Part shown: positions 14,982 to 30,708 of the stretch, piece by piece
Position numbering within the stretch: the stretch's first letter is position 1
Layout of the letters: each line of letters begins with the position of its first letter
Source: Terriglobia bacterium
Lineage (GTDB): Bacteria > Acidobacteriota > Terriglobia > UBA7540
DNA: 64,000 bases
Direction of reading: 5' to 3'
Assembly (NCBI GenBank): GCA_035308965.1
Contig: DATGFN010000015.1
Coordinates: 121,762-185,761, forward strand
Notes under the pieces: generated by a model
What the model saw: only the letters and a program-made list of their open reading frames with translations
The model's database searches: none
What the model was told of the DNA's origin: nothing
Program-made: the position numbers and the translations under genes

Positions 14982-15407
14982 TTAAGGATAAACCCGATAA
15001 AGGAGCCAGTAAACCATCACTCCGGTAATGGATACATAGAGCCAAGCCGGGAGTGTCCATCGCGCGATGCGCTTGTGCAGGTCGAATCGTTTTTTCCAGG
15101 CGCGATAAAGCGTGGTTAGGATCAGGGGAACAATCAACGCCGCCAAAATTGTGTGTGAACCTAGTAAAGTGAAATAAAAGGGGCGAATCAGGCCCTGCCC
15201 CATGAAACGTGTGACACCATGATGCGCGTGGTACCAGAGGTAGCAGACAAGAAATAGCGAGGACGTCCCAAACGCCGATAGCATGCAGATTTTATGAGCC
15301 AGGATGCGTTTATTGCGTATGAAGTAGTAACCGAGGGTCAGCAGGACGGCACTGGCGGCGTTCAGCGAGGCGTCGAGCGCCGGAAAATCAGAGAGGGGAA
15401 GGATCAC
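14982..15407 (-). CDS. DUF420 family membrane protein
   Basis: 4-TM protein of 141 aa with the pattern LNAASAVLLTLGYYFIRNKRILAHKICM. DUF420 proteins commonly accompany heme-copper oxidase genes. Confidence 0.55.
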   Translation of the reverse strand: MILPLSDFPALDASLNAASAVLLTLGYYFIRNKRILAHKICMLSAFGTSSLFLVCYLWYHAHHGVTRFMGQGLIRPFYFTLLGSHTILAALIVPLILTTLYRAWKKRFDLHKRIARWTLPAWLYVSITGVMVYWLLYRVYP

Positions 15408-15468
15408 GGGTTGAGTTTACAGTTGATAGCTGACTGTTGAAAGTTAAAAACAAAGGCGAATAGCCGCC

Positions 15469-16362
15469 TTAAGCTTTATGGGCAATCAGGAAAAGCCTGC
15501 CTGATCCGAGCTTGAACGGCTCCAGGTCAAACGAGCTAAATGCTTGGGTGCGTGAGAATCCGGCCTCCTCGAGCAGGTGACAGATCTCTCGATAGGTGTA
15601 AACGCGATCGGATGAAGTTTTCTTCTCCTCTTTCCCGTTTCGCACAAAAGTGTATTCGGTTTCCATGCGTCCGTGAACGTGGTCCCACCGGTTCTCTTCA
15701 AGAAAGAGGATGTCGCCCACACGCACCCACTCGCGTTCTCGGACAATGGGCAGCACCACTTCTGCCACCCGGCTGGCATCGAGGACGAACCGGCCTCCCG
15801 TATTGAGGGCGCGAAAAACGGATTTCAGAAAACCGGCATGCCCCGCGTCATCGAAGTATCCGAAGCTGCCTCCCATACAGAAGGCCGCGTCAAAATGCTC
15901 CGCCCAATCCATGCGGCGCATATCACCTTGTTTCCAACCAATATTCATGCCCTTCGCAGAAGCCTTGCGCCGGCCCTCTTCCAGAAATGCCGGGGCAAAA
16001 TCGAGTCCGGTCACCTGGAAGCCGCGCGACGCCATGGCGAGCGAGAGCCGCCCTTCACCGCAGGGAACATCCAATACCTTTGCGGAGGGGGCGAGGGCGA
16101 GTACCTTCTGAAGAAAGTCCGCCTCGGCCTGGGTTTGTTCTTCGGAAAAAACCTGGCGCCACATGTCCAGGGCAATTCCGTCGAAAAAACTCTCCCACCA
16201 TTCTTGGGACACAATCCACCCACTTTTGTCGACAGATTCCTTGCGGTCGGACGTGGTTAACTCGAGGCTTGGCCGGAAGGCACACTGGGCGGCTCGGCGG
16301 AGTCCGGTTTCTTCTTCGCGTGTTCCATCGCCCGCTTTAGCTCTCCCGTGAAAACGGACCAT
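15469..16362 (-). CDS. class I SAM-dependent methyltransferase
   Basis: Motif I VLDVPCGEGRLSLAMA...GLDF. The true start is probably downstream of the track start, because the track ORF overlaps the upstream small gene. Confidence 0.7.
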   Translation of the reverse strand: MVRFHGRAKAGDGTREEETGLRRAAQCAFRPSLELTTSDRKESVDKSGWIVSQEWWESFFDGIALDMWRQVFSEEQTQAEADFLQKVLALAPSAKVLDVPCGEGRLSLAMASRGFQVTGLDFAPAFLEEGRRKASAKGMNIGWKQGDMRRMDWAEHFDAAFCMGGSFGYFDDAGHAGFLKSVFRALNTGGRFVLDASRVAEVVLPIVREREWVRVGDILFLEENRWDHVHGRMETEYTFVRNGKEEKKTSSDRVYTYREICHLLEEAGFSRTQAFSSFDLEPFKLGSGRLFLIAHKA

Positions 16363-16580
16363 ACAACGTTTAACATAAACACGCCGCCAATGGTCAGGCT
16401 AATAATTGTCAGGGCGATGCCATCCAAAGTCAAAATTTGACCGGTCATGACGAGATAGGCGAAGACACCGAGCGAGATCAGCCCGGCAAGAAGGCAGAAG
16501 CCGAATAAGATGAGCGTCTCAAGCATGGAGGTTTGTTCCTTGCCCCGCGTAATGCCCTGAGGATCCTGAAAATCCGGCAT
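16257..16580 (-). CDS. small two-TM membrane protein (hypothetical)
   Basis: ORF with two predicted hydrophobic helices (LILFGFCLLAGLISLGVFAYLV and IALTIISLTIGGVFMLNVVW). Confidence 0.35.
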   Translation of the reverse strand: MPDFQDPQGITRGKEQTSMLETLILFGFCLLAGLISLGVFAYLVMTGQILTLDGIALTIISLTIGGVFMLNVVWSVFTGELKRAMEHAKKKPDSAEPPSVPSGQASS

Positions 16581-16625
16581 TGGTCAAACAGGAGTTCACA
16601 GTCTGCCGTTGAAGTCTGGTTGAGA

Positions 16626-17558
16626 TCAAAACAAAACCTTGTCCACGATCATGAGACCAAAAATCAACGGCAAATAAAATACGGATGCCAGGAGGAGGCG
16701 CCGTGCCAGCAACTTGGACCGTACCTTGGCCGTCAGAACGCCGCAATAAAGGAGGCCCAGCCCCAAGGGGAGCGCACCCATGAAATAAACCCAGCCCATC
16801 TGGCCCAGCCAGGTGGGGAGCAAGCTGATCGGCAAGAGAGCGAGCGAGGTCACGAGAATCTGCCGCGCGGCCTTTCGCCCTTGTGGGTCATCGGCCGGAA
16901 GCATGAAAAGTCCCGCCCGTTCGTAATCCTCGCGGTACATCCAGGCGATGGAAAGAAAATGCGGGAACTGCCATATAAAAAGGATGGCGTATAGCGTCCA
17001 AGCTTCAAGATTCAGGGTACCGCGCGCCGCCGCCCACCCAATCAATGGCGGCATGGCCCCCGGAAAAGCGCCCACCAGCGTGCAGTAGGTAGTTTTCCGT
17101 TTGAGTGGAGTATAAAGAAGAAGGTAGCTCGCAAGAGTAAGGAACGCCAGGGCACTGGCTAGAAAGTTGGCTGCCCACCAGAGGTATAAACAGCCGCCCA
17201 CTGAAAGGATAATTCCAAACCACAGGGCTTCCGAAGGCGAAAGTCTTCCCGCGGGCAAGGGTCGATTGGCGGTTCGCCGCATGCGGGCGTCAGACTGGCG
17301 TTCAAACCATTGGTTCAGGGTCGCCGTGCCACTTGCCACCAGTAGAGTGCCGGCAAGGGTGTGGAACAGGAGCAAATAATTCACCGGGCCGCGCCAACCA
17401 AGGTAGAAACCCGCAAGCGAGCTGGCTACAACCAGCGAATTCACCTCGGGCTTGGTGAGCGTCCAATAGTCCCCGAGTTTGCCGCGCCACCCGGCCCCGA
17501 CCGCGCGGGGCAGCGGATTGACTGCCGCGATCACCGAGTTGTCTACAACGCTGCCCAT
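16626..17558 (-). CDS. ctaB: protoheme IX farnesyltransferase (heme O synthase)
   Basis: UbiA-family motifs (NQWFERQSDARMRRTANRPLPAGR). Start assigned to the ATG at 17558, which lies 10 nt after the ctaA stop; the long N-terminal track extension overlaps ctaA. Confidence 0.85.
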   Translation of the reverse strand: MGSVVDNSVIAAVNPLPRAVGAGWRGKLGDYWTLTKPEVNSLVVASSLAGFYLGWRGPVNYLLLFHTLAGTLLVASGTATLNQWFERQSDARMRRTANRPLPAGRLSPSEALWFGIILSVGGCLYLWWAANFLASALAFLTLASYLLLYTPLKRKTTYCTLVGAFPGAMPPLIGWAAARGTLNLEAWTLYAILFIWQFPHFLSIAWMYREDYERAGLFMLPADDPQGRKAARQILVTSLALLPISLLPTWLGQMGWVYFMGALPLGLGLLYCGVLTAKVRSKLLARRLLLASVFYLPLIFGLMIVDKVLF

Positions 17559-17568
17559 TAATTTTCCT

Positions 17569-18513
17569 TCAAACCGCAACGTTTTCCCGCATCGAAGAGA
17601 GCTCCGGGGCCGCATCGGGCGCCGCGACAAACCGGTAAGTCTGATAGGTAAGCGCCAAACTGGCCGCCAGAACCAACGCGCCCACCGCAACGTGGGTGGT
17701 GGTGACCAGAACCACGGGCGGCAAGGGCTGGGGTGCGTTTTGATTTGTCCAAACTTCCCAATAGGAGCCAACGCCGAGGGCCACCTGCGCCACCAGCAAC
17801 CCGGTGAGCAGCCCAATGGGCCGCGTGAGATGGCGTTCGGTTCTAAATTCGATGAGCACCCGCACCAGCATCCAAACCACTGCGATAGTTACCAGGCCCG
17901 CTCCCACCACGTGAGGGATGATTCCAAACCCATGATGACGGAAAGCCGCGCCCATCATGAGCTGAAGAAAAATCAAAACCGTCGTAGCCGTGGCCAGCCG
18001 TCGAAGAGAAACCGTTGAGGTTTCTCTTGCCTTGGGCTCGTCCCAACCCCAGCCCGGTTGGGTAAATAATGCGAGGCTTACCATGATGCAGAAAAAAGCC
18101 TGGGCCAAACAGGCGTGAGCCACGGAAACATCCACGGGCAAAAAGAAAAGGACCGTGATGCCGCCCAAAATGGCTTGCGCAAAGATGGTGAGGACAGCAA
18201 TCGCGCCCAAGCGGCGCACCCATCGTCGCGGCTCATACCGCCAGAGACAGGCCGCGAGAATCAGGGTGAAAATCACCACCGTCCCCGCCACCATGCGATG
18301 TCCGTGCTCGAACTTGACGCCCCCCACCATGCGCGGCATGCGAAAGGTCCCAAACGAAGTCGGCCAGTCCGGAACGGAAAGGCCTGCATCATTGGACGTC
18401 ACCAGCGCCCCGGCGATAATCAAAATGAAAGTGGCGGCGGCAACAAACGTCGCGTAGCGGTGCAGCCATCTTTGCTGTAAGGTCTGTGCCATTTTCGAAG
18501 CTATGCATTCCAA
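17569..18513 (-). CDS. ctaA: heme A synthase (COX15/CtaA)
   Basis: 8-TM protein with a CtaA/COX15-like N-terminus (ATFVAAATFILIIAGALVTSNDAGLSVPDWP) and conserved His-bearing helices. Confidence 0.85.
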   Translation of the reverse strand: MECIASKMAQTLQQRWLHRYATFVAAATFILIIAGALVTSNDAGLSVPDWPTSFGTFRMPRMVGGVKFEHGHRMVAGTVVIFTLILAACLWRYEPRRWVRRLGAIAVLTIFAQAILGGITVLFFLPVDVSVAHACLAQAFFCIMVSLALFTQPGWGWDEPKARETSTVSLRRLATATTVLIFLQLMMGAAFRHHGFGIIPHVVGAGLVTIAVVWMLVRVLIEFRTERHLTRPIGLLTGLLVAQVALGVGSYWEVWTNQNAPQPLPPVVLVTTTHVAVGALVLAASLALTYQTYRFVAAPDAAPELSSMRENVAV

Positions 18514-18821
18514 GGCGCAACCGCGGCGTTCGGCGCATCGTGATTTGCCGGGTCTGGGTGAAACTCTGTCCCATCGTCAACGCCCGCGTTAAAGCTATTC
18601 CGCCGGCGGAATAGCACACCAAAAATCAAAATGAACATCAGGAGCGAAGGGAACATCATCACCAGCACACCCGTCCTCAGTGCCTGCAACATTCCCGGAG
18701 CTTGCGTAGCGGCGTTCTGGTAACATGCGGGGCAGGTCTGAGCCAATGCCACGCTGGAACTCGCAAGCGCGGCAAGACCCGCCGAAATTCGCAGCAACTT
18801 TGCCCGAATTGGATGCTGTAA

Positions 18822-18859
18822 ATCTGAAATTTGAAATTTCAGATTTGAAATTTGAAATC
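18822..18859. repeat. AT-rich palindrome TCTGAAATTTGAAATTTCAGA followed by GAAATTTG repeats
   Basis: Read directly. The longer track ORF 18501..18893 translates through this palindrome (SGFQISNLKFQISDLQ), so that N-terminus is not real. Confidence 0.6.
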
Positions 18860-18973
18860 CACTTTTCACGATCTGCCGTCCCCTACTTTCCACGTCATGT
18901 CTTCCACCTTCTCCGCACCAAGTCGCCGCTTTTTCTCAGTTCATCATTCATAATTCATCATTCATACTTTCTT

Positions 18974-19288
18974 TCAGTGCACCTTCATCGCCAGAATGCG
19001 AAGACTGTCTGGAAACACCACAAACAACATTCCCACCACAAACAGCAACGCCGGCATCAGGGTCAGGATCAGACTGCGGCGCTCATACCGGAGGTGCATG
19101 AAATAAGCGATGATGAGCGACGCTTTAATAAGCGAGAGGCCCATCAACAGGGCGAGCATCAGCTTCAGTTCCAATTGCTCATAGGCCAGGATGACTTCGA
19201 TTGCGGTCATCCCCAGCAGCGAAAACCAAACGGTGAAAGTCACCTTCTTGCTGATTTCATCGTGGGCATGTTCACTGGTTGCGCTCAT
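18974..19288 (-). CDS. cytochrome c oxidase subunit IV (prokaryotic CtaF/CoxD-like)
   Basis: 104-aa 3-TM protein containing AYFMHLRYE, resembling bacterial oxidase subunit IV. It sits immediately downstream of the subunit III genes. Confidence 0.6.
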   Translation of the reverse strand: MSATSEHAHDEISKKVTFTVWFSLLGMTAIEVILAYEQLELKLMLALLMGLSLIKASLIIAYFMHLRYERRSLILTLMPALLFVVGMLFVVFPDSLRILAMKVH

Positions 19289-19358
19289 TCGATCTCAAAC
19301 CTCCAATTTTAGCTGCGGCCGGCGCCTGTCCCTGGAAAGGGAGACCGCCTTCAGCCCA

Positions 19359-20000
19359 TCAAATTTTTGCCGACAGCAGATAGACCAGCGGGAAGATGAA
19401 CATCCAAACCAAATCGACAAAATGCCAATACAGTCCGGCGACTTCCACCACTTCATCGTTATATTTTCCCCGCGCCGTACCCAAGGCCACCACGGCAAGA
19501 TAGAAAACCCCGATGGTGACGTGGGTCATGTGCAGGCCGGTCAATCCGAAAAATGTTGCGCCAAACAACGGCGTGCCCCATGGATTTCCCCAGGGAGTCA
19601 CGCCCTGGTGAAACAATCCAAACCATTCCCGAAGGTGGAGGATGTCAAACAAGACTCCCCCCATCAGCGTCGCAAAGAGCCAACCTGCCGCGCGTTTGGG
19701 AATGCCCATCTTGGCGGCGCGCACGCCCAGCACCATGGTGACCGAACTGCTGAGCAGGACCAGGGTCATCACGGTGGCGTTGATGACGCTGGCTGATTCA
19801 AAGGGTCTCGGCCACGTTTCGGTCGAGGTGCGTGTATAACTATATGCAACCAGCAGTGCGGAGAAGGTGATGGCGTCGGAAACGATGAACAGCCACATTC
19901 CCAGCTTGTTCGAACCGATGGCGTACGGAGATCCGCCCCCGGACCAAATCGTTTCACGCCCCCCGGGAGTGGCGGTTAAATCCTGAGCATGGCTCGACAT
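19359..20000 (-). CDS. cytochrome c oxidase subunit III
   Basis: COX3-family helices (GMWLFIVSDAITFSALLVAYSY...LYWHFVDLVWMFIFPLVYL). Confidence 0.8.
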   Translation of the reverse strand: MSSHAQDLTATPGGRETIWSGGGSPYAIGSNKLGMWLFIVSDAITFSALLVAYSYTRTSTETWPRPFESASVINATVMTLVLLSSSVTMVLGVRAAKMGIPKRAAGWLFATLMGGVLFDILHLREWFGLFHQGVTPWGNPWGTPLFGATFFGLTGLHMTHVTIGVFYLAVVALGTARGKYNDEVVEVAGLYWHFVDLVWMFIFPLVYLLSAKI

Positions 20001-20001
20001 C

Positions 20002-20673
20002 CTATAACCTCACCGTAAGCAGAAGTAGGAGATAAATCCACAGCCCGTCCATAAAATGCCAATAGATGGCGGTCACATCCACCGCCACGCGCTTTTTCAG
20101 GCCAACTGCCAACTTCGGAGCCTTCCAGACAAGGTAGAAAAGCGCGCCCACACCACCCAGCAAGTGCAGTCCGTGCGCCGCCGTCAGCAGGTAAAAGAAC
20201 GAACTGCTGGGATTGGTGGAGAGATACACGCCATGCGACGCCAGTTCGCGCCAAGCGATCAGTTGACCGCCAATGAAAGCGATGCCGAGGATTGTGGTGA
20301 CATTGAGCCAAAGCTTGAAATCGCGGGCTCTGCCGGCGTCGAGCGCTCTGCGAGAAAATTCGAATGCCAGACTGCTGGCCAGCAGAAGGAGAGTATTGAA
20401 ATAAAGAATGCGCGGTAGCGCAATCGCTGTCCAGTCGGACGATGCGCCCTTGCGGACAACCATCGCGCTGGTGAAAGCCGCGAACAACATTACAATGGCG
20501 ACGAGCGCCATCCACATGCCGGTACGATAGGTACGCGCCGGCACGCTCCATTCCCGGTTTTCTCTTCCGCCATCCCTTCCGTACCCGCGCCCGCCGAAAC
20601 CATTCCCGCCGCCTCCCGTCGCATTGCTTCCCGGCGGAGTTGTAAGTCTGGGCGGAGTGAGAACAGTTGCCAT
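20002..20673 (-). CDS. second cytochrome c oxidase subunit III-family protein (paralog with Gly-rich N-terminal extension)
   Basis: Contains ...AIYWHFMDGLWIYLLLLL, a COX3 signature. It sits in tandem with the preceding COX3 gene, separated by 1 nt. Confidence 0.7.
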   Translation of the reverse strand: MATVLTPPRLTTPPGSNATGGGGNGFGGRGYGRDGGRENREWSVPARTYRTGMWMALVAIVMLFAAFTSAMVVRKGASSDWTAIALPRILYFNTLLLLASSLAFEFSRRALDAGRARDFKLWLNVTTILGIAFIGGQLIAWRELASHGVYLSTNPSSSFFYLLTAAHGLHLLGGVGALFYLVWKAPKLAVGLKKRVAVDVTAIYWHFMDGLWIYLLLLLTVRL

Positions 20674-20763
20674 ACTTAGTCCGATGCAACTCAGGATTCA
20701 AAATTCCAAATTCCAGAATCACTTAACCATCTTTATCTTACTGCCTTCTGCCTTCTGCCTTCT

Positions 20764-22545
20764 TCATTCAGCCGCTACTTTCTCCGGCGAATCCTGCATG
20801 ATGTAATCTTTCTCAGCGCCCGGGACGCCAAATTCATAGGCGCCGTGGTAGACCACCGGATGTTTTCCGGCAAAATTATCGAAGGGCGGCGGAGAGGGAA
20901 TAGTCCACTCGAGCGTCGTTGCTTCCCACGGATTCTCAGACGCCTTCTCACCTTTGAACATGCTCCAAAAAAGGTTGGCCACGAAAATGATCTGGGCGCC
21001 CGCGGTGATGAACGCCGCATAAGTCATGAACATGTGCAGGTCAATAATATGGGGTGTATTCAGGAAATTGACTTCCGTAAACTGGGAGTACCGCCGAATG
21101 TTCCCCGCCACGCCCAGGAAGTGCATGGGCATGAAGATGCAGTAGACGCCGACAAAAGTAATCCAGAAATGTAACTTACCCAGGGATTCGTTCAACATGC
21201 GGCCAAACATTTTGGGAAACCAGAAGAATGTTCCGGCAAACATTCCGAAAATGGCGGCCACGCCCATCACCAGGTGGAAGTGCCCAACCACAAAATAAGT
21301 GGCGTGAAGATTGATGTCCACAGGCGGCTGGGCGAGAAACAGCCCGCTGAGTCCGCCGCTGACGAATAGAGAAACGAATCCGATGGAGAACAGCATAGCG
21401 GTGGTCATGCGCAGCCTGCCGCCCCACAGCGTCCCCAGCCAGTTGAATGTCTTGATGGCACTCGGCACGCCGATCGCCATGGTCATCACGGAAAATGCAA
21501 AGCCGGAATAGGGGCTCATGCCGCTCAAGAACATGTGGTGGCCCCAAACCATGAAGCCCAGGAATCCGATGGCGGACATGGCGTAAATCATGGCCTTGTA
21601 GCCAAAGATCGGCTTGCGTGAAAACGTGGAGATAATGTGTGAGGTCACGCCCATGCCCGGCAGGATAGCAATGTAAACTTCCGGGTGACCGAAGAACCAG
21701 AACAAGTGCTGCCAAAGGAGCGGCGACCCGCCGCTATGTGGAATGATTCTATCGCTCACCACAAGGCCGGCAGGGATGAAGAAACTGGTGCCGCCTACGC
21801 GGTCGAGAAGCAGCAAAACGCCAGCGGCCAGCAGAACGGCAAATGAGAGCAGCGCCAGAATCGCGGTGATCAACCACGCCCAAATGGTAAGCGGCAGGCG
21901 CGTGAGCGTCAGTCCTTTTGCGCGCAAATCGAGTGTAGTGGCAATGAAATTCAGCGCGCCCAGCAACGAACCGACGCAAAAAATTGCGATGGAAACTATC
22001 CATAAAGTTTGGCCCAGACCTTCGCCCGGCCCCGCTGCCGATCCGATGGCGCTCAAGGGCGCATACCCTGTCCAGCCGGAAAGAGGCGGGCCGTCCTGGA
22101 TGAAGAAAGTTGAAAGAAGAACCACGAAGCCCACAAAAGTGGTCCAGAAGGAAAGCATGTTCAGCGTGGGGAAAGCCATGTCTTCAGCGCCCAACTGGAT
22201 GGGCAGGATGTAATTGCCAAACCCGCTTTGGGGCGCGGTGGTGAGCACGAAGAAAACCATCAATGTGCCGTGAAGGGTCATCAGGGAGAGGTAATATTCA
22301 GGCGTCATCACGCCGCCGGGAGCGCCGCTGGGAGAAAGCTTGTCAAGCAGCGGGATATGTGCGGCGGGCCACACCATGTGCAAGCGCATGAAAACTGAAA
22401 GCACGATGCCCACAAGAACCGACGCCAGGGCCAGGAAGTAATACTGTTTCCCGATCACCTTGTGGTCAAGGCTGAAGATGTATTTCCTTATGAAGCCGGT
22501 GGGCGCCGTGTGATGGTGAACGGCCTCCGCGTGCGCATCTGCCAT
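20764..22545 (-). CDS. ctaD: cytochrome c oxidase subunit I
   Basis: WFFGHPEVYI motif, 12 or more TM helices and 593 aa. Confidence 0.95.
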   Translation of the reverse strand: MADAHAEAVHHHTAPTGFIRKYIFSLDHKVIGKQYYFLALASVLVGIVLSVFMRLHMVWPAAHIPLLDKLSPSGAPGGVMTPEYYLSLMTLHGTLMVFFVLTTAPQSGFGNYILPIQLGAEDMAFPTLNMLSFWTTFVGFVVLLSTFFIQDGPPLSGWTGYAPLSAIGSAAGPGEGLGQTLWIVSIAIFCVGSLLGALNFIATTLDLRAKGLTLTRLPLTIWAWLITAILALLSFAVLLAAGVLLLLDRVGGTSFFIPAGLVVSDRIIPHSGGSPLLWQHLFWFFGHPEVYIAILPGMGVTSHIISTFSRKPIFGYKAMIYAMSAIGFLGFMVWGHHMFLSGMSPYSGFAFSVMTMAIGVPSAIKTFNWLGTLWGGRLRMTTAMLFSIGFVSLFVSGGLSGLFLAQPPVDINLHATYFVVGHFHLVMGVAAIFGMFAGTFFWFPKMFGRMLNESLGKLHFWITFVGVYCIFMPMHFLGVAGNIRRYSQFTEVNFLNTPHIIDLHMFMTYAAFITAGAQIIFVANLFWSMFKGEKASENPWEATTLEWTIPSPPPFDNFAGKHPVVYHGAYEFGVPGAEKDYIMQDSPEKVAAE

Positions 22546-22698: not shown

Positions 22699-23535
22699 TT
22701 ACTGTGATGCCGCTTGATCCTGGAGCCACTTCTCGTAATCTTCTTCGGTCATCACTTTCAAGAATGCCCGCATTTTGTAATGTCCAAGCCCGCAAAGCTG
22801 AGTGCACACAATTTCATAGGTCCCATTGGGCAATTTCGGATCGCTGCTGTGATTGAGCGCGTCCGGGGTGGTGGTGAAATGAATGGGAATCTCAAGTCCT
22901 GGAACCAGATCCTGATGCACTCTCAGTTCGCGAACGAAGAAGGAGTGCCCCACGTCCTTGGAACGCAGTATCACTTCCACTTCCCTGTTCACGGGAATAC
23001 CCAGCGTGGCGGTCACAATATCGTCCTTGGCCGTGGCATCATGGTCGCGGTCTATGCCATAGAAGTTTCCCGTTGAGTCGTTGATCAGATTCACGTGGGT
23101 GGGGCCAAATTGTCCGTCGGGCCCGGGATAGCGGAAAGACCATGCAAATTGCTGCCCCTGCGCCTGAACCTTCAATGCCCCAGGCGCGGGACCGGTGAAA
23201 TGGATCGCCGCCCAGATGCGGTAGCCCATCAGATTCAGTCCGATAAACAGAATCGCCGCGGCCGTGGTCCACATGGTTTCCAGCGAATTGTTGCCGTGCG
23301 AGTAAGTGACCTTGCGGCCGTCGCCCTTATCGCGGTACTTGTAGACAAACCAGGCAAGGCCGAGTTGAGCGAGAACGAAAATGATTCCGCAAATGATGAG
23401 CGTCAAGACGAATTGGTTATCCACCGCCGCTCCGTGGGTGGAGATGGCGACGGGAAACCACCAGATTTTCGCCAGAAAGACGTACACGGAAACAACTGTG
23501 ATCAGGGCCACGACCAGCGCGAAGGCCAGCGCCAT
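22699..23535 (-). CDS. ctaC: cytochrome c oxidase subunit II (CuA; no fused cytochrome c domain)
   Basis: CuA site (CTQLCGLGHYKM), two N-terminal TM helices and no CXXCH. The RBS aaagaggagaa lies upstream of the start. Confidence 0.9.
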   Translation of the reverse strand: MALAFALVVALITVVSVYVFLAKIWWFPVAISTHGAAVDNQFVLTLIICGIIFVLAQLGLAWFVYKYRDKGDGRKVTYSHGNNSLETMWTTAAAILFIGLNLMGYRIWAAIHFTGPAPGALKVQAQGQQFAWSFRYPGPDGQFGPTHVNLINDSTGNFYGIDRDHDATAKDDIVTATLGIPVNREVEVILRSKDVGHSFFVRELRVHQDLVPGLEIPIHFTTTPDALNHSSDPKLPNGTYEIVCTQLCGLGHYKMRAFLKVMTEEDYEKWLQDQAASQ

Positions 23536-23714
23536 AAGTTCTCCTCTTTAGAGGTAGACAGCAAACAGTAGAGGGTATACAGGGACGATGAATCGTTCTA
23601 AAGATTCACCCTTCAGGCCCTGATTACAAACGCGCTCCCCAGCGCGGATCTCATCAGTCCCGTTTTTGTTTTTCCCTGGCTACAGTCTACTGTCTGCTAC
23701 CTACTTTACTTACC

Positions 23715-24497
23715 TCATCCCTTGAAACTGAAGTCGACCGACTTCGACTCCTTGGGAGCCACGGTTACTTTTTGTTCTTGTGTCCCAAAAGTGGCCGACC
23801 ACGCCTCGATGGTGTAGTCGCCCGGAGGAAGTCCCTTGATGGTGAATGTCCCATCGCTGCCCGAAACCGCAAACAAAGGATTCTTGGTCACGCCGATGTA
23901 AGCCTTCATCCAGGGGTGCTGGTTGCACTTTACCGGAATCATGATTTCCGCCCGCGCAAACGTCTTGTCCAGTGGAGCGGCGCCCGGCGCCTGGGATTCG
24001 TTCCATTCACGATTGTCTTTGGGTTGAGGATGGATGTTGTGCGTGGTGGCGTCACTGCTGATCACGTGCAGGGTCTGGTCCACTTGCACTCCTACCACGT
24101 GCGGCTTGTACATGCAGCCATTTTGGTCCAGCGTGACGGCATCGGATGGTTTGGGCCAGGCGTATTTGTCCGCGCCTTCTTTCACGTAAACAAAAACGTT
24201 GGGCAAGGTTCCATTGTCATTCACCTCGCCGTCTTCCACGTGAACGGGAGAGCTGTGCTTGCCCACGCAGACCGGGTCCTGATCCATCTTGATGACTGCC
24301 AGTTTCGGCTTGGCGCCGGTGAAAGTAATTTTACCCGTAACCGAACCCACGGTGGCTTGGTCCACCGGAGTCCCTGCCGGCGCCGCGGTTGTAGCGGCGG
24401 GCTGCTCGGTGTTTTCCGGCGCCTTCTCGCTGCTGCAACCAAACATCAAAATTGAAGTGGCGATAATCGAGAGCCATACCATCATTTTCTTGTTCAT
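23715..24497 (-). CDS. lipoprotein with possible type-1 copper motif (C-x2-H-x2-M) and C-terminal carboxypeptidase-regulatory-like beta-sandwich
   Basis: Lipobox (LMFGCSS); VKCNQHPWMKAY with an upstream His (HNIHPQ), resembling a cupredoxin ligand set; C-terminal SGSDGTFTIKGLPPGDYTIEA, a CarboxypepD_reg-like segment. Confidence 0.45.
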   Translation of the reverse strand: MNKKMMVWLSIIATSILMFGCSSEKAPENTEQPAATTAAPAGTPVDQATVGSVTGKITFTGAKPKLAVIKMDQDPVCVGKHSSPVHVEDGEVNDNGTLPNVFVYVKEGADKYAWPKPSDAVTLDQNGCMYKPHVVGVQVDQTLHVISSDATTHNIHPQPKDNREWNESQAPGAAPLDKTFARAEIMIPVKCNQHPWMKAYIGVTKNPLFAVSGSDGTFTIKGLPPGDYTIEAWSATFGTQEQKVTVAPKESKSVDFSFKG

Positions 24498-24548
24498 GTT
24501 TCAAAACCTTCCTATCAGATTAGATTTGTCCACAGCATTATTTCGCGA

Positions 24549-27500
24549 TTAATGAGATTTTACCAGCATTCCGATCAGCGTGGGCCGGGCATGGGCATCG
24601 GGGCCATCCCCTTTTTCAGTCTTCGTTTGTTTCATGCTGCTCGCGCTGAGTCCGGTGAGCTTGCGTTGTTCTTCAGGCGTAATCTCAAACATGTAACGGA
24701 CCAAAAGATCGGCCTGGTCGCCCTCATATCCCGTGAAAATGGGCGGGGTGGGGCCGGCAAAAACGTTGTGCCCGTCTTCCATTCTCTTGAACAGGCCGGA
24801 AGGCATGGCCGTGCCCGGACTGATCATCGCGGGGTCTAATATCCAGTGTTTGGTCCAATCCGGCTTTAGCCGTTCGGGCGCCAGCAAGAAATTGGGCGCG
24901 GTGGCAAATTTATCGTGATTGGCATCGCCGGTGGCATGGCACTTCAGGCAGGGCGCCGCGCGGCTGGTGAATAGCGCCCGCGCCATATCCAATTCCTTGG
25001 TGGTCAAGGGCTCGAGCTTGGGCGGAATGTATGGCATGGGCTGGCTGGACATGGCCTGGAAGAACCTCACCAGTTTGCGCACCTCGATGGGCGAGAAATA
25101 GAACGTCGGCATCCGTGTCTTCAGGTAGGGACGGACACCGTCCCGGTCCGTGTCCGTCTCGCTCATGGCGGGATTGGAAAGGAATTTGAGCAGCCATTCC
25201 GGATTTACGCGCGCACCCTCGGTGAGCAACTTGGGCGGAAGCTGATCCTTCCATTCCGGCGTTTGATAGCGCGGAATATCCATAAGCACGGAATCCTGCC
25301 CCACTTTGAACTGGTGGCACCCTTCGCAATTGTATTTCTTAACCAGCCACCACCCGTCCTGAACATCGCGGCGCTGGTCGGGGGGCAGATACCAATACCG
25401 TTGGGGGATTTCCGAGGTAACGCTGCCCATCAGGAAAGTGGTGAGTTCGTTGATTTGTTGTTTGGCCTCGGGCGCCAGATCCGGCAAACCTTTGGTGACT
25501 TTATCGCTCGCCGGCTCAAAGAAATCGGGCATGCGAGCCTGTTCGGCCTCGGTCTTGATCATGCCCTTGTCAAACATCTCCGGCTGGGAGAGCTTGTGCT
25601 CGAAGAAGCCCTTGTGGCTGTACCAGTCTTCGTTCTTGGCTTCGCGAATGTAAAGGGCGAAGTCGATCTGCTCGAGAGGCTTGCTGCCCTCGGCGGTCAG
25701 TTCGGTGCCGATTCTCCCTTCGTCCTCCATGCCTTCGATTTCGTGGCAGCCCGCACAACCATAGAACCGGATCGTTTTTTTGCCCTCTTCCTTGAGCTTG
25801 GGATCGTTCATGAACGGCGCCGCGGCATATTGGGCGTCCGGACGCTTCAGCGTCTCCAAGTAGCTGGCAATATCCCGCGCCTCCGGCCATGAAAGCCGCA
25901 GGTTGGGCATCACCGTCATCTGTTCCACCACCATCTCGTGGCCGTCGTTCGGGCACTTGGTGTGGTTCAAGTCAAAGGTGTAGGGCGGCAAGCCGTGCTT
26001 CTTGTAATCTTCATCGGTAATATCCCTCTTCTCAAAGGGACAATAGGGACGCGTGCGCTCGCGTGGGTTGTGGATCCAGCGTACCAGGAAATCGTAGTTG
26101 TCTTTCTCCCCCACCCTGGTCAGGTTGGCGGCAAACCAGCCACCCACCTGATTATTGCCTTCGCCCACCGAGTGGCAGCCCATGCAGCCGCGCGTCTCAA
26201 AACTCTCCTTGCCTTTCACCGGGTCACCCGGCGCCTGATGGGGAAGCGTTGTGTTAATGGCCGTCTGCCAGAGGTACGCCGAAATTTCCTGAATGTCCCC
26301 GTCGTCAAGACGGAATCGCGGCATCTTGGTGGTGGGGCGGAAGGCGTGGGGATTTTTGAGCCACACCGGAATCCATTCCGGGTGAATCTTGACACGAACT
26401 TCCTTTAAGTCAGGACCGACTTTCTTGCGACCCATCATGAGATATTTGGATTTCACCTCGAGCTGGTCCAACTGCATCGCGATTTGACTGGAGCCAACGC
26501 GCAAAGTGTCCGCGTGAGTATAGAACTTGCGCGCCGTATCGTTGTCGGGAGCGTGGTCGCCGCTGTCAATGTCGCGCTGCGCGTTTCGCAGATCATCGGC
26601 GCGTTGGGTCTCCATTTGCATGATCTGTTGTTGATTGGCGACTAGATCTTCAGGCTCCGAATCGTATCCCTGGAAGCGATGGCACCCGATGCACCCTTTC
26701 CACTGAAGAAGTTGCTTGCCGGAAGTCAATTCCTGAGCGTGATCCACCACCATGTCTGCCGCGTGGCACTGCTGGCAGCCCGCCTCCATGTTGCCTTTAT
26801 GATAGAGAGGCCAAAGCCAGTGCTCGTATTCTCCGTGGCCCATCTCCACACTGTCCACTTGCATTCCGTTGCCGTTGTGGCACGGCGTGCAGCCAAATTT
26901 ATCCGGATCGTGAATTCGCAGCAACTCCATGTCCGGATGGCTGGTGAACGCCGCCGACATGGGATTTTTTTCGCCGCCCATGTTCTGCCGCGTCAACAGG
27001 ACCGATTCACGAATGCCCACATGGCACGACTCGCAACGGTCGACGACTCCGGCATCGGGAATGTTGATCTGGTTGATATCGATCTTGGCCGTCTTCGCCT
27101 TGTTCAGGAGCCCTTTTAACTGCTCGGCGCTGAGACCATTCAAATGGTCGTGAAGGTAAGCCGCAAGTTTTTTCGACGCCGCGCCCTGGGGCTTCAGGAT
27201 GTCGCCTTCTTGCTGCTGAAGATTCCCTTTCTCGGTCTGGAGATTGGCAAACTCGTTTTCCAGTTCCTCAAATGTGAACGTCTTTCCGGCGTAGGCGGAC
27301 CCGCCGAGGGTGAACGGCCCCTTCTTGTATTCGTCCACGTCGTGTTCCAAGGACTTTCTTGTCGGCCCCTCGGGGGTATGCTCGGCCACGTAGATCATGG
27401 AGCCGACCCGGGCCCGCTGGTTGGTCAAGGTCCCCAGAACCGACGCAATTTTTGCGTCGATGGCCGCGGTCTGCTCATGAATCTGCTGCAATTGCGGCGC

Positions 27501-27779
27501 CGCCGCGTCTTGGGCGTCCTTGACTTCTTTTTGAAGCGCCTGATAGTCAGCGGAATTCTCAATATCTTTTTCGGCTTTTTCCTGGTCTGGGATTTCTTTG
27601 GTCAAAAGGGCGGCGTATAGCTTGGCGAATCGCTGCTCGTAATTCTTCCAGGGACGCAGGCCGAAGAACTCGTCGTAGAGCGACCATCCCAAACTCGAAA
27701 TCAGGAGGAAGGCGGCGATCACGAAATAGCCGGCCAGCGACCGGCCAACAATCGGGTCCTTCTCGGGGGCGTCAGGCAA
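24549..27779 (-). CDS. membrane-anchored c-type cytochrome, 1076 aa, with 8 CXXCH motifs (probable cytochrome c subunit of the bc complex)
   Basis: Eight CXXCH motifs: CESCH, CTPCH, CQQCH, CIGCH, CMGCH, CAGCH, CEGCH, CLKCH. N-terminal TM helix and a long coiled-coil-like segment. Located directly downstream of the Rieske and cytochrome b genes. Confidence 0.8.
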   Translation of the reverse strand: MPDAPEKDPIVGRSLAGYFVIAAFLLISSLGWSLYDEFFGLRPWKNYEQRFAKLYAALLTKEIPDQEKAEKDIENSADYQALQKEVKDAQDAAAPQLQQIHEQTAAIDAKIASVLGTLTNQRARVGSMIYVAEHTPEGPTRKSLEHDVDEYKKGPFTLGGSAYAGKTFTFEELENEFANLQTEKGNLQQQEGDILKPQGAASKKLAAYLHDHLNGLSAEQLKGLLNKAKTAKIDINQINIPDAGVVDRCESCHVGIRESVLLTRQNMGGEKNPMSAAFTSHPDMELLRIHDPDKFGCTPCHNGNGMQVDSVEMGHGEYEHWLWPLYHKGNMEAGCQQCHAADMVVDHAQELTSGKQLLQWKGCIGCHRFQGYDSEPEDLVANQQQIMQMETQRADDLRNAQRDIDSGDHAPDNDTARKFYTHADTLRVGSSQIAMQLDQLEVKSKYLMMGRKKVGPDLKEVRVKIHPEWIPVWLKNPHAFRPTTKMPRFRLDDGDIQEISAYLWQTAINTTLPHQAPGDPVKGKESFETRGCMGCHSVGEGNNQVGGWFAANLTRVGEKDNYDFLVRWIHNPRERTRPYCPFEKRDITDEDYKKHGLPPYTFDLNHTKCPNDGHEMVVEQMTVMPNLRLSWPEARDIASYLETLKRPDAQYAAAPFMNDPKLKEEGKKTIRFYGCAGCHEIEGMEDEGRIGTELTAEGSKPLEQIDFALYIREAKNEDWYSHKGFFEHKLSQPEMFDKGMIKTEAEQARMPDFFEPASDKVTKGLPDLAPEAKQQINELTTFLMGSVTSEIPQRYWYLPPDQRRDVQDGWWLVKKYNCEGCHQFKVGQDSVLMDIPRYQTPEWKDQLPPKLLTEGARVNPEWLLKFLSNPAMSETDTDRDGVRPYLKTRMPTFYFSPIEVRKLVRFFQAMSSQPMPYIPPKLEPLTTKELDMARALFTSRAAPCLKCHATGDANHDKFATAPNFLLAPERLKPDWTKHWILDPAMISPGTAMPSGLFKRMEDGHNVFAGPTPPIFTGYEGDQADLLVRYMFEITPEEQRKLTGLSASSMKQTKTEKGDGPDAHARPTLIGMLVKSH

Positions 27780-27894
27780 TGCGCTGCTCCTCGTAGCGCC
27801 GGGCTTCAGCCCGGCATCTTAATCATTTGTGATTTGTCTTGAACCCTGCCGCCCTGAAGGGCGGCGCTACAACATCACTGCAATGCGTTAATTC

Positions 27895-28836
27895 TTAAAC
27901 GTTGAACCACCACGTGACCCAGACGTACTTGATGCGAAACACCAGCCGCAAAATCATCTTGACGGGCAATAGCAGCATGGTGATCAGGAAAATTTGGAGT
28001 GTGATGTATTGAATCAGGCTCATGCGCTGGTAGATCTTCCGGTTGAATTCCGTCCACGTGATGGCCTTGTGAAATATGTATCCCGCTCCGGCAAAATAAA
28101 GGGCCATCACGACAGCGCCGAAAATGGCCTTGCCCGTCATGCTGGAAATGCCGAAAATGTCGGGCAAATCCCGGTTGACTTCATATATTACCCGGCTGGG
28201 GTCCCAGGTCTGTCCCGGCCAGAACCACATCCACCCGGGCCCCCGAATGAACGTCCCGACCAGCACCATCAAGACCCAGAGAAATAGGAATCCGAAGCAG
28301 AAGGTGGCAATGGAAAACCTGCGTTGCTTCCAGGTGTAGTAGCCGGAGCCCAGTGGATTGGTGTCCACGTAAGGGATAATCATCAGTCCCAGTACGATCA
28401 AGGTGGGCATTACCACGCCGGCAATCCAGGGATCGAAATACACCAGCATTTCCTGAAGCCCCAGGAAATACCAGGGCGCCTTGGCGGGATTCATGGTCAG
28501 GTTGGGATTCGCCAGTTCTTCCAGCGGCGCGTTGAGGGTGATGGACCAAATAAATAAAATGACGGTGACAATGATGGCGGCCAGAAATTCCATCCGCATC
28601 AGATACGGCCAGGTCTGGAGTTCCTTGGCCCAACCCGCCTTCCACGGATAGTTTTTCCGGTGGGCAGTCTTGGCCAGTTGAGGATCGCTCTCGAGTTGCG
28701 CAATCAGGCGGTCGTTGGCAAAAGCCTGACTGAAAGCCATCCAACAGAAAAAAGGGATAAGGAAGATGAGCGCGACAATAGGAATATTGTCAGGCGCCGA
28801 GCTGACTTCCCAAAGTTGATGCCAGTCAAAACCCAT
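27895..28836 (-). CDS. cytochrome b C-terminal domain protein (PetD/subunit IV-like, extended)
   Basis: PEWY-like motif (AKAPWYFLGLQEMLVYF) and multiple TM helices. Follows the cytochrome b N-terminal-domain gene. Confidence 0.75.
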   Translation of the reverse strand: MGFDWHQLWEVSSAPDNIPIVALIFLIPFFCWMAFSQAFANDRLIAQLESDPQLAKTAHRKNYPWKAGWAKELQTWPYLMRMEFLAAIIVTVILFIWSITLNAPLEELANPNLTMNPAKAPWYFLGLQEMLVYFDPWIAGVVMPTLIVLGLMIIPYVDTNPLGSGYYTWKQRRFSIATFCFGFLFLWVLMVLVGTFIRGPGWMWFWPGQTWDPSRVIYEVNRDLPDIFGISSMTGKAIFGAVVMALYFAGAGYIFHKAITWTEFNRKIYQRMSLIQYITLQIFLITMLLLPVKMILRLVFRIKYVWVTWWFNV

Positions 28837-28909
28837 TTATGACCTCAAAATAGATGGTTAGGTGGCATGTAGAATGTGGGCCCACCCACCACATGCGACT
28901 TGCTACCTA

Positions 28910-29818
28910 CTAAATCTTCCTCTCCGGCTTGATTTCCGATTCCAGCATGACGGGCGCGGGGCCGGAAATTCCGCCGTCTTTTCGCACCCGCCAGAAATGC
29001 ACGCCCATAAAGGTTCCCGCGATCAGCGGTATGGCAATGCAGTGCCAGATGTACGCGCGCAACAACGCATTGGCGTCCACAATCGAGCCGCCCAGCAGGG
29101 CGAAGCGGACGTCATTATATGGAGTCATCCCCAACTGACGGCCCAGCGGTCCCTGATAACCCAGGCCCGGAGTATTCTGCGCCATGGTCGTTCCCACCGT
29201 GACCGCCCAGAAGCCCAGTTGATCGTCGGGCAGAAGATATCCTGTGAAGGAAAGCAGCAGAGTCAGCACCAGCAGGACTACGCCCACGCACCAATTGAAT
29301 TCGCGCGGCTTCTTGTACGAGCCGGTAAGGAAGACGCGGAACATGTGCAACCACACGGCGATCACCATCAAGTGGGCGGCCCAGCGGTGCATATTGCGCA
29401 AAAGTTTTCCGAACGGGACATCGCTCATCAGGTAAATGATGTCGTTATACGCCTGCCCCTTGGTGGGGTGGTAATAGAACATCAGCAGGACGCCGGTGAT
29501 GGTGAGGACGATGAACAGATAAAAGGTGATGCCACCCATGCCCCAGGTGTAGTTGTAACGGACCGCATCGCGATTTACTTTGGCGGGATGAAGATGCAGG
29601 AAAACGTTGGAGAGCACGCCCAGGGCCCGGCTGCGCTCGCTCTCGTCATGCTTCACCCGAAAGATCGATTTGTAAAGTTGCGTCTTCTCCGGCTTCTTGA
29701 GAGCTTCGGCTTCTTCAATTGCCCTTTCCTTCAGGACCTTCGTATCCTGGAGAAGCTTCTCCACAAATCCGGGCGACGGTTTCTTTTCGGGAACCTCGGG
29801 ACTGGGACGATCAGCCAT
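28910..29818 (-). CDS. cytochrome b N-terminal domain protein (cytochrome b6-like, bis-heme)
   Basis: HRWAAHLMVIAVWLHMFRVFLTGSYKKPREFNW...HFWRVRKDGGISGP aligns with PetB-type cytochrome b6, including the four heme-ligand His residues. Confidence 0.85.
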   Translation of the reverse strand: MADRPSPEVPEKKPSPGFVEKLLQDTKVLKERAIEEAEALKKPEKTQLYKSIFRVKHDESERSRALGVLSNVFLHLHPAKVNRDAVRYNYTWGMGGITFYLFIVLTITGVLLMFYYHPTKGQAYNDIIYLMSDVPFGKLLRNMHRWAAHLMVIAVWLHMFRVFLTGSYKKPREFNWCVGVVLLVLTLLLSFTGYLLPDDQLGFWAVTVGTTMAQNTPGLGYQGPLGRQLGMTPYNDVRFALLGGSIVDANALLRAYIWHCIAIPLIAGTFMGVHFWRVRKDGGISGPAPVMLESEIKPERKI

Positions 29819-30015
29819 GAATCTCCTGAGTGCAGTGACGAGTGACGAGTGATGCGTGACAAGCTCTGACCGTTGACTTCGCCTGCTCGCAGATTGATGC
29901 TCTGCTCCCTACAGTTTGCCCCATTACCTTTCTTCCTCGCTCAGCCATCAGTGGTTCGTTTAGGTGTTTTCTTACTTCCTGCTCGCCACTCGTCATTAGT
30001 CACTTGTCACTGTTC

Positions 30016-30708
30016 TTACACCGGAATAAACGCGCCTGGATCGTTGAATTCGTCACGGCCGCCTTTGCTGCGATCCCACATGAAGAGAATGCTTTTATCG
30101 GCGATGATTTGGCCCTGGGCGTTCAATTCAACGTGCGCACGGTCCATGGGCCTCGGTGCAGGACCCTCAAAATTGATACCTTCCGGCGTGTAGCCGCTGC
30201 CGTGGCACGGACACTTGAACTTGTTTTCGGCCGGTTTCCAGTCCGGCGTGCAGCCGAGATGCGTGCACTTGGCGAAGATGGCAAAAATCTGGGTAGGTTC
30301 CCTCACCACGTAAATGCGGCACTCCTGTTTGAACCGGTCGCTGACGCCAAGGACATAATCGGACGGATAGCCAAGATTGCAAATGTTGCTGGGCTCAAAT
30401 AGGGCGCGCGGGAAAAAGAAGCGGAGGAACATCAGGAAATTCGCGCCCAGGAATGCCACAATGCAAGTCCAGGTCAGGCGACGGCGCAACTGGTTGGGAT
30501 CTGGCTCCTTGACTTCCTTCGCGGGAGCTGCCGCTGGCTTGGCCGCCGGCGGAGTGACGGCTTTGGCCGTCGCTGGAGCTTGAACCGCCGGCTTGGGAGT
30601 TGCGGGCGCCGCGGCGGATTTTTCCACCGGCTTCGCCACCCCAGTCCCCTGTGCCGGATCGGCCGGTTTTGAAGGAGCCGGGGCGTTCGGATCTTCTGGA
30701 TTCGACAT
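30016..30708 (-). CDS. Rieske [2Fe-2S] iron-sulfur protein with Pro/Ala-rich N-terminal tail
   Basis: Rieske boxes CTHLGCTPDW and CPCHGSGY, a TM helix and a low-complexity PA-rich N-terminus. Confidence 0.9.
   Translation of the reverse strand: MSNPEDPNAPAPSKPADPAQGTGVAKPVEKSAAAPATPKPAVQAPATAKAVTPPAAKPAAAPAKEVKEPDPNQLRRRLTWTCIVAFLGANFLMFLRFFFPRALFEPSNICNLGYPSDYVLGVSDRFKQECRIYVVREPTQIFAIFAKCTHLGCTPDWKPAENKFKCPCHGSGYTPEGINFEGPAPRPMDRAHVELNAQGQIIADKSILFMWDRSKGGRDEFNDPGAFIPV

Follow-up and report, generated by a model that had tools for sequence, protein, structure and literature searches.

A Terriglobia gene cluster joining a split-b Rieske complex, an octaheme cytochrome c and a predicted blue-copper lipoprotein to an aa3 oxidase, a candidate quinol-to-O2 chain

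Multiheme subunits in the APWY clade of Rieske/cytochrome b complexes, superoperons that join complexes III and IV, and cupredoxins that replace cytochrome c are all known in kind. The APWY clade, which includes the ExtO/P/Q module of Geobacter and the Kustd1480-1485 complex of Kuenenia stuttgartiensis (PMC4122944, PMC5600118, PMC12954380), is probably the "subfamily G" of Dibrova et al. (PMC5600118). Kao and Hunte (2014, PMC4122944) describe all its members as uncharacterised, in vitro as well as in vivo, and suggest that they operate in reverse. An "atypical octaheme cytochrome c" has been noted beside the split-b Rieske operon in Nitrospina, Kuenenia and Methylomirabilis (PMC3578206), and bc-oxidase "superoperons" are expressed in cultured Acidobacteria (PMC8407424). 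Here we analyse a gene cluster from a Terriglobia bacterium (Acidobacteriota; GenBank assembly GCA_035308965.1, contig DATGFN010000015.1, positions 121,762 to 185,761 of the forward strand). This whole stretch of 64,000 nucleotides (nt) is called the window, and positions refer to it unless another locus is named. On its minus strand, from 30708 down to 14982, genes for a Rieske protein, a split cytochrome b, an octaheme cytochrome c, a lipoprotein, an aa3-type oxidase and its assembly factors follow one another (Table 1). We consider it likely that this cluster encodes a complete aerobic branch leading from membrane quinol to O2 and needing no soluble cytochrome c.

In the proposed chain, a b6f-like Rieske/cytochrome b complex would oxidise quinol, presumably menaquinol, at an APWY-type quinol-oxidation (Qo) site. 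One electron would pass to the Rieske cluster and from there to the c hemes of the octaheme cytochrome, which would stand in for cytochrome c1 or f, and the second would be recycled via the two b hemes of cytochrome b. The octaheme cytochrome would then reduce CuA of the aa3 oxidase, directly or, more likely, via the tethered blue-copper lipoprotein, and the oxidase (CoxII, CoxI, two CoxIII and CoxIV) would reduce O2 and pump protons. CtaA, CtaB, the DUF420/CtaM protein and perhaps a small CxxC protein would serve heme A making and oxidase assembly. In support of such a chain, every expected cofactor site is intact, namely the Rieske boxes, the b histidines, APWY, the CXXCH motifs, CuA and GHPEVY. 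No other c-type cytochrome is encoded within the cluster, and CoxII has no fused one. The position of the cytochrome and cupredoxin genes, immediately after the split cytochrome b genes, fits a high-potential output of a bc-type complex. A preliminary description of the locus, made from the letters and open reading frames (ORFs), had proposed the octaheme cytochrome and/or the lipoprotein as the candidate wire to CuA, and the heme motifs, copper ligands and gene linkage reported below all point the same way.

The first three genes carry the marks of the Rieske/cytochrome b superfamily, with CxHxGC/CxCH boxes, four b-heme histidines and a PxWY-type Qo motif. The Rieske protein has a Pro/Ala-rich N-terminus with a twin-arginine-like RRR motif and one transmembrane helix, and its cluster-binding boxes (CTHLGC...CPCHGSGY) lie at residues 148-175. 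The serine and tyrosine of the CPCHGSGY box have been associated with a higher cluster potential (PMC4122944, PMC3509893). In the N-half of cytochrome b, the heme ligands are H144/H158 and H259/H274 (two b hemes, helices B and D); H259 and H274 stand 15 positions apart, with 14 intervening residues, which is the b6-type helix-D spacing, and the best PDB matches of this half are cytochrome b6 (5e-43). The C-half shows about six hydropathy peaks, read as predicted transmembrane helices, and has its APWY at residues 120-123. At the heme-cn (ci) position the sequence reads TWGMGG in place of the cysteine of CxGG, and covalent heme cn would therefore be absent. Among the features of b6f-type complexes, the split b and the helix-D spacing are thus found, and the heme-cn cysteine, a three-helix subunit IV and cytochrome f are missing.

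By its motifs (APWY, split b and a high-potential-type Rieske signature), the cytochrome b can be placed in the APWY clade. Besides these, the locus shares with the clade an enlarged subunit IV (five helices modelled in Kuenenia, about six predicted here) and a large cytochrome c, hexa- or octaheme, that takes the place of c1 or f. It differs in that the WCMGG motif, "mostly" present in the clade, reads WGMGG here, that no NAD(P) oxidoreductase or HAO-like subunit accompanies it, and that an aa3 oxidase and a cupredoxin are linked to it. Scores against the NCBIfam profiles for ExtP, ExtQ and ExtS (264.7, 44.4 and 38.8 bits) stay below the equivalog cut-offs (290, 150 and 100), and the proteins appear related but not equivalent to those of the Geobacter selenite/tellurite operon. 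The same motifs were followed through a synteny set of 13 Acidobacteriota-type genome loci, several of them truncated at an end, and 6 distant loci in 5 distinct contexts. KAPWY is conserved in every related locus where the C-half gene is available, and TWGMGG in those where the corresponding gene is present, with the sole exception of the short contig L019 (TWCMGG); TWGMGG, KAPWY and the Rieske boxes are common to all oxidase-linked loci. The sequences would accordingly describe a cysteine-less subgroup of the APWY clade, associated with oxidase genes.

The fourth gene encodes the octaheme cytochrome. The preliminary description had counted eight CXXCH motifs and had named their loss in orthologs as an argument against covalent heme; they are in fact conserved in close and distant relatives. 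A word-indexed search gave 2869 homologs with E <=1e-5, and among the best 120 of them, which were inspected, 117 of the 118 full-length sequences at >=55% identity have exactly eight. HMMER, run exhaustively over 1.84 billion cluster representatives, returned 5008 clusters at E <=0.001 (741 at E <=1e-30), and exactly eight motifs are present in ~95% of the listed representatives of >=800 amino acids (aa), which span 820-1800 aa and 30-48% identity. In a 49-sequence alignment, all 16 heme cysteines and the 8 CXXCH histidines are invariant. The closest genome loci belong to Terriglobia (Acidobacteriota) metagenome-assembled genomes (MAGs), with 83-90% amino-acid identity in the cytochrome, and an identical protein is found on a 271.6-kb JGI metagenome contig.

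The same alignment suggests two kinds of heme site. A Met-Pro pair is invariant at 486, 624, 750, 890 and 992, one after each of CXXCH 4-8, and each also follows a [G/P]PxL-like motif. Because this is the class-I cytochrome c pattern, the motifs at 363, 532, 675, 818 and 944 probably mark five class-I-like hemes with His/Met ligation. Among CXXCH 1-3 (249, 297 and 335), where Pfam recognises a Cytochrome_C7/c3-like module, lie the invariant His281, His290 and His315, and since three invariant histidines accompany these motifs, a three-heme module with bis-His ligation is probable there. The protein has an N-terminal transmembrane helix within its first ~40 residues (hydropathy peak 10-28, model helix 16-38). 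Its AlphaFold2 model has a predicted local distance difference test (pLDDT) of 66 and a predicted template-modelling score (pTM) of 0.43, was used for secondary structure only, without heme geometry, and gave only coiled-coil noise (E >0.1) in Foldseek against PDB. It predicts that residues 44-230 form long helices and that a helical hairpin (375-451) interrupts the first class-I-like unit; the "coiled-coil segment" of the preliminary description corresponds to these predicted helices. In Kuenenia Kustd1485, long alpha-helices are described as wrapping the complex (PMC12954380), a description that the helices modelled here match. The cytochrome had also been called atypical for bc1 complexes. 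That is true against canonical bc1; it does not extend further, for octaheme subunits had already been noted beside split-b operons and the family has thousands of members, and in the APWY clade such a cytochrome is normal and no oddity.

The fifth gene encodes the lipoprotein. Its only Pfam match is a C-terminal CarboxypepD_reg domain, sequence searches of PDB returned nothing relevant to it, and many of its homologs carry the JGI label "plastocyanin". In the structural model, a Greek-key cupredoxin domain (residues ~100-204) appears nested in a transthyretin-like (CarboxypepD_reg) beta-sandwich, a reading that follows from the sandwich strands on both of its sides, one (51-60) before the cupredoxin and the others (205-259) after it. 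H153, C191, H194 and M197 are invariant in a 57-sequence alignment. By hhalign they fall, in register, on His53, Cys92, His95 and Met98 of amicyanin, with THNIH on PHNVH and CNQHPWM on CTPHPFM. The preliminary description had asked for a cupredoxin fold with conserved Cys/His/Met residues, and the model provides the predicted fold, the alignments the conserved residues. Model and sequence thus support the prediction that the lipoprotein is an amicyanin-like type-1 (blue) copper protein. The ligand motif is intact in four of the five distant-context homologs, those from Planctomycetota and Chlorobiota included; the exception is the marine contig L018, whose C-x2-H-x2-E has Glu instead of the axial Met. 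The homolog on L019 is non-lipidated and has a C-x3-H-x2-M loop. In the window protein, an invariant Cys21 is followed by a 27-residue low-complexity linker (22-48), modelled as disordered, and both fit a lipoprotein tethered by a lipid anchor. A disulfide may join C77 and C128, which are conserved in 4/6 of the sequences compared (C128 in 5/6) and absent from the most divergent, L018 and L019. Three further residues, M71, H81 and H133, are invariant within Acidobacteriota; a second metal site made of them was rejected as a defining feature, since their conservation does not extend to the homologs from Planctomycetota and Chlorobiota.

Gene order across genomes ties these five genes together. 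The order Rieske, cytochrome b N-half, C-half, octaheme cytochrome, cupredoxin is kept in the 13 Acidobacteriota-type loci, as far as the contigs reach (Terriglobia, "gp13", Acidiferrales and Acidobacteriaceae MAGs). In eight of them the oxidase and assembly genes of the window come next, and in four CtaA, CtaB and DUF420 directly; where the cox genes are elsewhere (L007, L008, L010 and L011), the cupredoxin stays with the bc module. In the Chlorobiota MAG CP065014, the Rieske, cytochrome b N-half, C-half and octaheme genes are followed by a small CPTC protein, the cupredoxin homolog, CoxII and CoxI. A Planctomycetota MAG has the same module and then CoxII, CoxI, CtaA, CtaB, CoxIII, an ABC transporter, SCO1 and DUF420, and an ENA metagenome contig is arranged in the same way, CoxIV included. 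On L018, the module precedes a cbb3-type oxidase (COX1-like plus a FixO-containing 780-aa protein, L018 14581-19660). The cluster is far beyond chance, because its gene order recurs in 19 independent loci of at least three phyla. The module occurs in at least Acidobacteriota, Planctomycetota and Chlorobiota, most often with an aa3 oxidase after it, and the cupredoxin travels with the Rieske/cytochrome b/octaheme module, not with the oxidase. One of the loci, L010 (DATKNR010000020.1), is labelled "Patescibacteria group bacterium" and carries a Rieske/cytochrome b/octaheme/cupredoxin/CtaA/CtaB/DUF420 cluster of acidobacterial type. This contig is probably mis-binned, as an aerobic respiratory chain is unlikely in true Patescibacteria. 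L018 also has, at 5450-6589, a Rieske protein fused to a Flavodoxin_1 domain.

The oxidase genes following the module encode an A1-type aa3 enzyme, as indicated by the GHPEV glutamate of CoxI, the CuA site of CoxII and the presence of both CtaA and CtaB. CoxII has the electron-entry tryptophan context FAWSF and scores 128 against TIGR02866, below the cut-off of 147.7. At 278 aa and without CXXCH it does not have the fused cytochrome c of caa3-type oxidases, in agreement with the preliminary description. The two CoxIII paralogs are ~30% identical to each other, and each matches the C-terminal two-thirds of the COX3 profile. Hausmann et al. (10.1101/197269) list the matching "coxOP" oxidase type with "no adjacent complex III", yet here the paralogs lie beside complex III genes. 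The DUF420 protein belongs to the CtaM family, and PMC8239418 (citing Hammer 2016 and von Wachenfeldt 2021) describes CtaM as needed for assembling active aa3 oxidase in Firmicutes. Between CoxIV and CtaA lies a small membrane protein that the preliminary gene list had omitted, the genes it did name being all present on the minus strand within 14982-30708 by ORF calls and Pfam/NCBIfam scans. This 130-aa CPAC protein matches no Pfam or NCBIfam family and is conserved in five related loci. Such a protein recurs inside Acidobacteriota clusters, with CPTC, CAMC or CPYC as the CxxC of its relatives, and a similar 76-aa CPTC protein is encoded in a Chlorobiota MAG (L014 13043-13273). It may be an assembly, redox or thiol/copper factor. 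In the same MAG, L014 14208-15422 encodes a CoxII of 404 aa with a C-terminal OmpA-family domain, an unusual fusion.

Whether electrons reach CuA through the cupredoxin depends on what the lipoprotein does. It could instead help to assemble CuA or CuB, as a copper chaperone or another assembly factor (PCuAC- or Sco-like), or be structural, with the octaheme cytochrome donating directly to CuA. The lipoprotein gene is indeed directly upstream of CoxII in the window, M71, H81 and H133 could make a second metal site, PCuAC-type copper chaperones are likewise cupredoxin-like in fold, and the last class-I-like octaheme domain could act as the fused cytochrome c does in caa3 oxidases. The ligands of PCuAC are His and Met only, whereas a complete His-Cys-His-Met set aligned with that of amicyanin typifies type-1 sites for electron transfer, and the Planctomycetota and Chlorobiota homologs keep this set but not M71, H81 and H133. 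Moreover, the gene remains with the bc module in the four loci with cox elsewhere, and the planctomycete versions have a separate SCO1 gene. We therefore judge a chaperone or structural role unlikely.

For the electron-carrier role, described systems offer analogies. As the direct donor to CuA we favour the cupredoxin as the likelier candidate over the last heme domain, because b6f/plastocyanin, haloarchaeal halocyanin, SoxM/sulfocyanin and auracyanin systems are analogous. In the SoxM supercomplex of Sulfolobus, sulfocyanin is a type-1 copper partner of a Rieske/b complex and its proposed link to a heme-copper oxidase. In Chloroflexus, auracyanin is a membrane-tethered blue-copper lipoprotein proposed to carry electrons from alternative complex III to the terminal acceptor. 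The likeness to the auracyanin system lies in a tethered blue-copper lipoprotein after a multiheme quinol oxidoreductase, although alternative complex III is unrelated to Rieske/b complexes. In Haloarchaea, the gene of a type-1 copper protein, halocyanin, is clustered with Rieske/split-b genes, and the protein is proposed as a link to a heme-copper oxidase (Baymann et al. 2012, PMC3509893); there, as presumably here, a high-potential Rieske occurs in a menaquinone-using organism. Neither this nor the SoxM system has a c-type cytochrome, whereas the present locus has an octaheme cytochrome, a transthyretin-nested cupredoxin and a bacterial host. With b6f/plastocyanin the locus shares, besides the b6-like N-half and its helix-D spacing, a probable acceptor that is a cupredoxin with plastocyanin- or amicyanin-type ligands. 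It differs in having no cytochrome f, heme cn or small Pet subunits, a subunit IV about twice as long, a cupredoxin that would be lipid-tethered, and an oxidase rather than a photosystem as acceptor.

The actinobacterial bcc-aa3 system and the acidobacterial "bc1-A1 caa3 superoperon" (Trojan et al. 2021, PMC8407424) likewise bring complex III and an A1-type oxidase together, with no soluble cytochrome c required. By analogy, and judged from gene adjacency alone, a supercomplex would be a likely outcome of such joint encoding. In the acidobacterial superoperon, which runs ctaCDEF-petC-petA-petB-ctaG, cytochrome b is unsplit and the cytochrome c subunit is a conventional one. The present cluster has the reverse order, a split b, an octaheme protein as its cytochrome c, a cupredoxin and a duplicated CoxIII.

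Several points weigh against the proposed quinol-to-O2 chain. It is a deduction from sequence comparison and modelling. APWY complexes have been proposed to run in reverse, from a high-potential donor to quinone reduction (PMC4122944). The three putative bis-His hemes would be of a kind that is normally low-potential, awkward in a downhill path from a high-potential Rieske, and the octaheme model is of low confidence and gives no heme geometry. With Ser-Ser at residues +2/+3, the lipoprotein could be destined for the outer membrane. Finally, four loci have CtaA/CtaB after the module without adjacent cox genes and one has a cbb3-type oxidase, which argues that the module is not dedicated to this aa3 oxidase.

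The first of these points on function leads to an alternative in which the cluster is a branch point with reverse flow: a periplasmic or extracellular donor, Fe(II) or another, would enter via the multiheme cytochrome or the cupredoxin, and its electrons would be split between aa3, downhill, and a reversed Rieske/b complex that reduces quinone, uphill. In addition to the proposal for the clade, a high-potential-type Rieske occurs here in a lineage expected to use menaquinone, the same paradox as in Haloarchaea (PMC3509893), and the three-heme c7-like module (Pfam Cytochrome_C7) could be an entry port. There is a precedent in rusticyanin with the PetI bc1 complex of Acidithiobacillus, and the combination of cupredoxin, aa3 and bc mirrors the rus and pet operons (PMC8239418, PMC2754497). 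However, no outer-membrane cytochrome, porin or substrate-oxidising enzyme was found in or next to the cluster in the window and the 19 related loci, the genes occur in widespread Terriglobia of soils, in planctomycetes and in Kapaibacteria-like bacteria, none of them known as lithotrophs, and the cluster resembles a self-sufficient quinol-to-O2 chain. Reverse flow is thus improbable in our view, and forward transfer from quinol to O2 remains the preferred reading.

It is highly improbable that the bc-type and cox genes are mere neighbours, independently transcribed and used, with soluble carriers encoded elsewhere linking several partners: the gaps of 179 nt (lipoprotein-CoxII) and 153 nt, a weak terminator-like hairpin at 23646-23631 between the lipoprotein and CoxII genes, and lineages in which the cox genes are non-adjacent or replaced by the cbb3 type would suit it, whereas the module recurs beside a heme-copper oxidase, or at least CtaA/CtaB, across three phyla, the terminator-like sites of the region (35 against a shuffled expectation of 23.9, standard deviation 5.4) are not far above chance, and another electron donor is found neither in CoxII nor elsewhere in the cluster.

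A broader reading, which we put forward tentatively and as somewhat less probable than its opposite, is that the Rieske protein, b6, extended subunit IV, octaheme cytochrome and nested cupredoxin are the five components of a distinct, conserved quinol oxidoreductase of at least three phyla, with the blue-copper protein as its dedicated output to aa3 or cbb3, whichever oxidase the organism has, and no soluble cytochrome c in the chain. If this were true, the three bis-His hemes would be a second gate to other periplasmic partners. A cysteine-less complex, free of heme cn and with a high-potential Rieske, that ran forwards in menaquinone organisms would contradict the proposal that APWY complexes act in reverse, and would call into question the usual view that the Rieske potential is matched to the type of quinone. 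In the searchable full-text literature we found no description of the conserved fifth gene, with its cupredoxin nested in a transthyretin-like domain, nor of the heme-cn-less, oxidase-linked subgroup across at least three phyla.

As genome annotation the locus is ordinary, but it opens a good way into a respiratory complex that is very widespread and still uncharacterised. Terriglobia rank with the most abundant bacteria of soils, and how they respire aerobically at low O2 is being actively studied (PMC8407424); the cluster adds a third type of complex III-IV cluster, so far without analysis. It would give a concrete bacterial example of copper in place of a soluble cytochrome c between complexes III and IV. 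The oxidase-linked, cupredoxin-containing subgroup of the APWY clade also offers a physiologically transparent case, quinol to O2, for how such complexes work; it could address whether they run forward, what the purpose of eight hemes is, and how a high-potential Rieske copes with menaquinol.

Table 1. Features of the cluster in the window, listed in cluster order (5' to 3' on the minus strand)
Feature	Length (aa)	Position	Strand	Remarks
Promoter-like site		30776..30805	-	TTGACA-18-TAAATT; 10/12 consensus matches; ~70 nt upstream of Rieske start
Rieske [2Fe-2S] subunit	230	30016..30708	-	Pfam Rieske 32.2 bits, cut-off 20.3
Cytochrome b N-half, b6-like	302	28910..29818	-	4 predicted transmembrane helices; Pfam Cytochrome_B 6.4e-40
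Cytochrome b C-half, extended subunit-IV-like	313	27895..28836	-	Pfam Cytochrom_B_C; Qo motif APWY
Membrane-anchored octaheme cytochrome c	1076	24549..27779	-	CXXCH at 249, 297, 335, 363, 532, 675, 818, 944
Lipoprotein	260	23715..24497	-	invariant Cys21; C191-NQ-H-PW-M197
CoxII	278	22699..23535	-	CuA site DVGHSF...CTQLCGLGHYKM; no CXXCH
CoxI, heme-copper oxidase subunit I	593	20764..22545	-	FGHPEVY, A1-type signature
CoxIII paralog a	223	20002..20673	-	COX3
CoxIII paralog b	213	19359..20000	-	COX3; 1-nt gap to paralog a
Prokaryotic CoxIV	104	18974..19288	-	Pfam
Small membrane protein	up to 130 (start uncertain)	18501..18893	-	signal-like segment, CPAC, C-terminal transmembrane helix
Heme A synthase CtaA		17569..18513	-	profile match
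Heme O synthase CtaB (UbiA family)		16626..17558	-	likely ATG start 17558, 10 nt past CtaA stop
Class I S-adenosylmethionine (SAM) methyltransferase		15469..16362	-	profile match
DUF420 protein, CtaM family		14982..15407	-	profile match

By ORF listing and translation together with Pfam and NCBIfam scans, the minus strand from 30708 to 14982 forms a run of sixteen genes, fifteen of which are named in Table 1; the plus-strand ORFs of the interval all lie inside minus-strand cluster genes and have no support. The spacing is less tight than the 0-150 nt of the preliminary description, ranging from a 13-nt overlap to 263 nt, with four gaps above 150 nt (197, 179, 153 and 263). A terminator scan gave no convincing internal terminator in the cluster. 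The promoter-like site sits in a 286-nt gap below the SPFH gene and is, by its consensus match, a candidate operon promoter, from which the cluster would be co-transcribed. The methyltransferase gene is bracketed by promoter-like and terminator-like sites and, among the related loci, occurs only in L004; for these reasons we treat it as an insertion, probably outside the conserved unit, and one transcript across it is doubtful. That its product might be a menaquinone or heme methylase dedicated to this system, and so belong to the core, was considered and rejected, as the other related loci lack the gene.

Other genes flank the cluster. Immediately upstream, a 670-aa SPFH/Band-7 protein (30995-33007, minus strand) occupies the same position in L004, with 91% identity; a link of this protein to the organisation of the respiratory complex is speculative. 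Directly downstream of DUF420, the gene at 13516-14871 (minus strand) encodes a response-regulator receiver domain followed by ~330 Pro/Ala/Glu-rich low-complexity residues, and this protein is conserved at the same place in L002. Further upstream, a fluoride riboswitch (34053-34120, minus strand; Rfam RF01734, 44.7 bits, E 4e-9) directly precedes two minus-strand ORFs, a CrcB/FluC-like 134-aa membrane protein (33628-34032) and one of 119 aa (33262-33621), and together these make up a standard fluoride-resistance unit. On the plus strand, the product of 34230-35819 is a secreted protein of 529 aa that has seven or more CXXCH motifs and, at its C-terminus, a TPR-like region; it would be a second multiheme cytochrome near the cluster.

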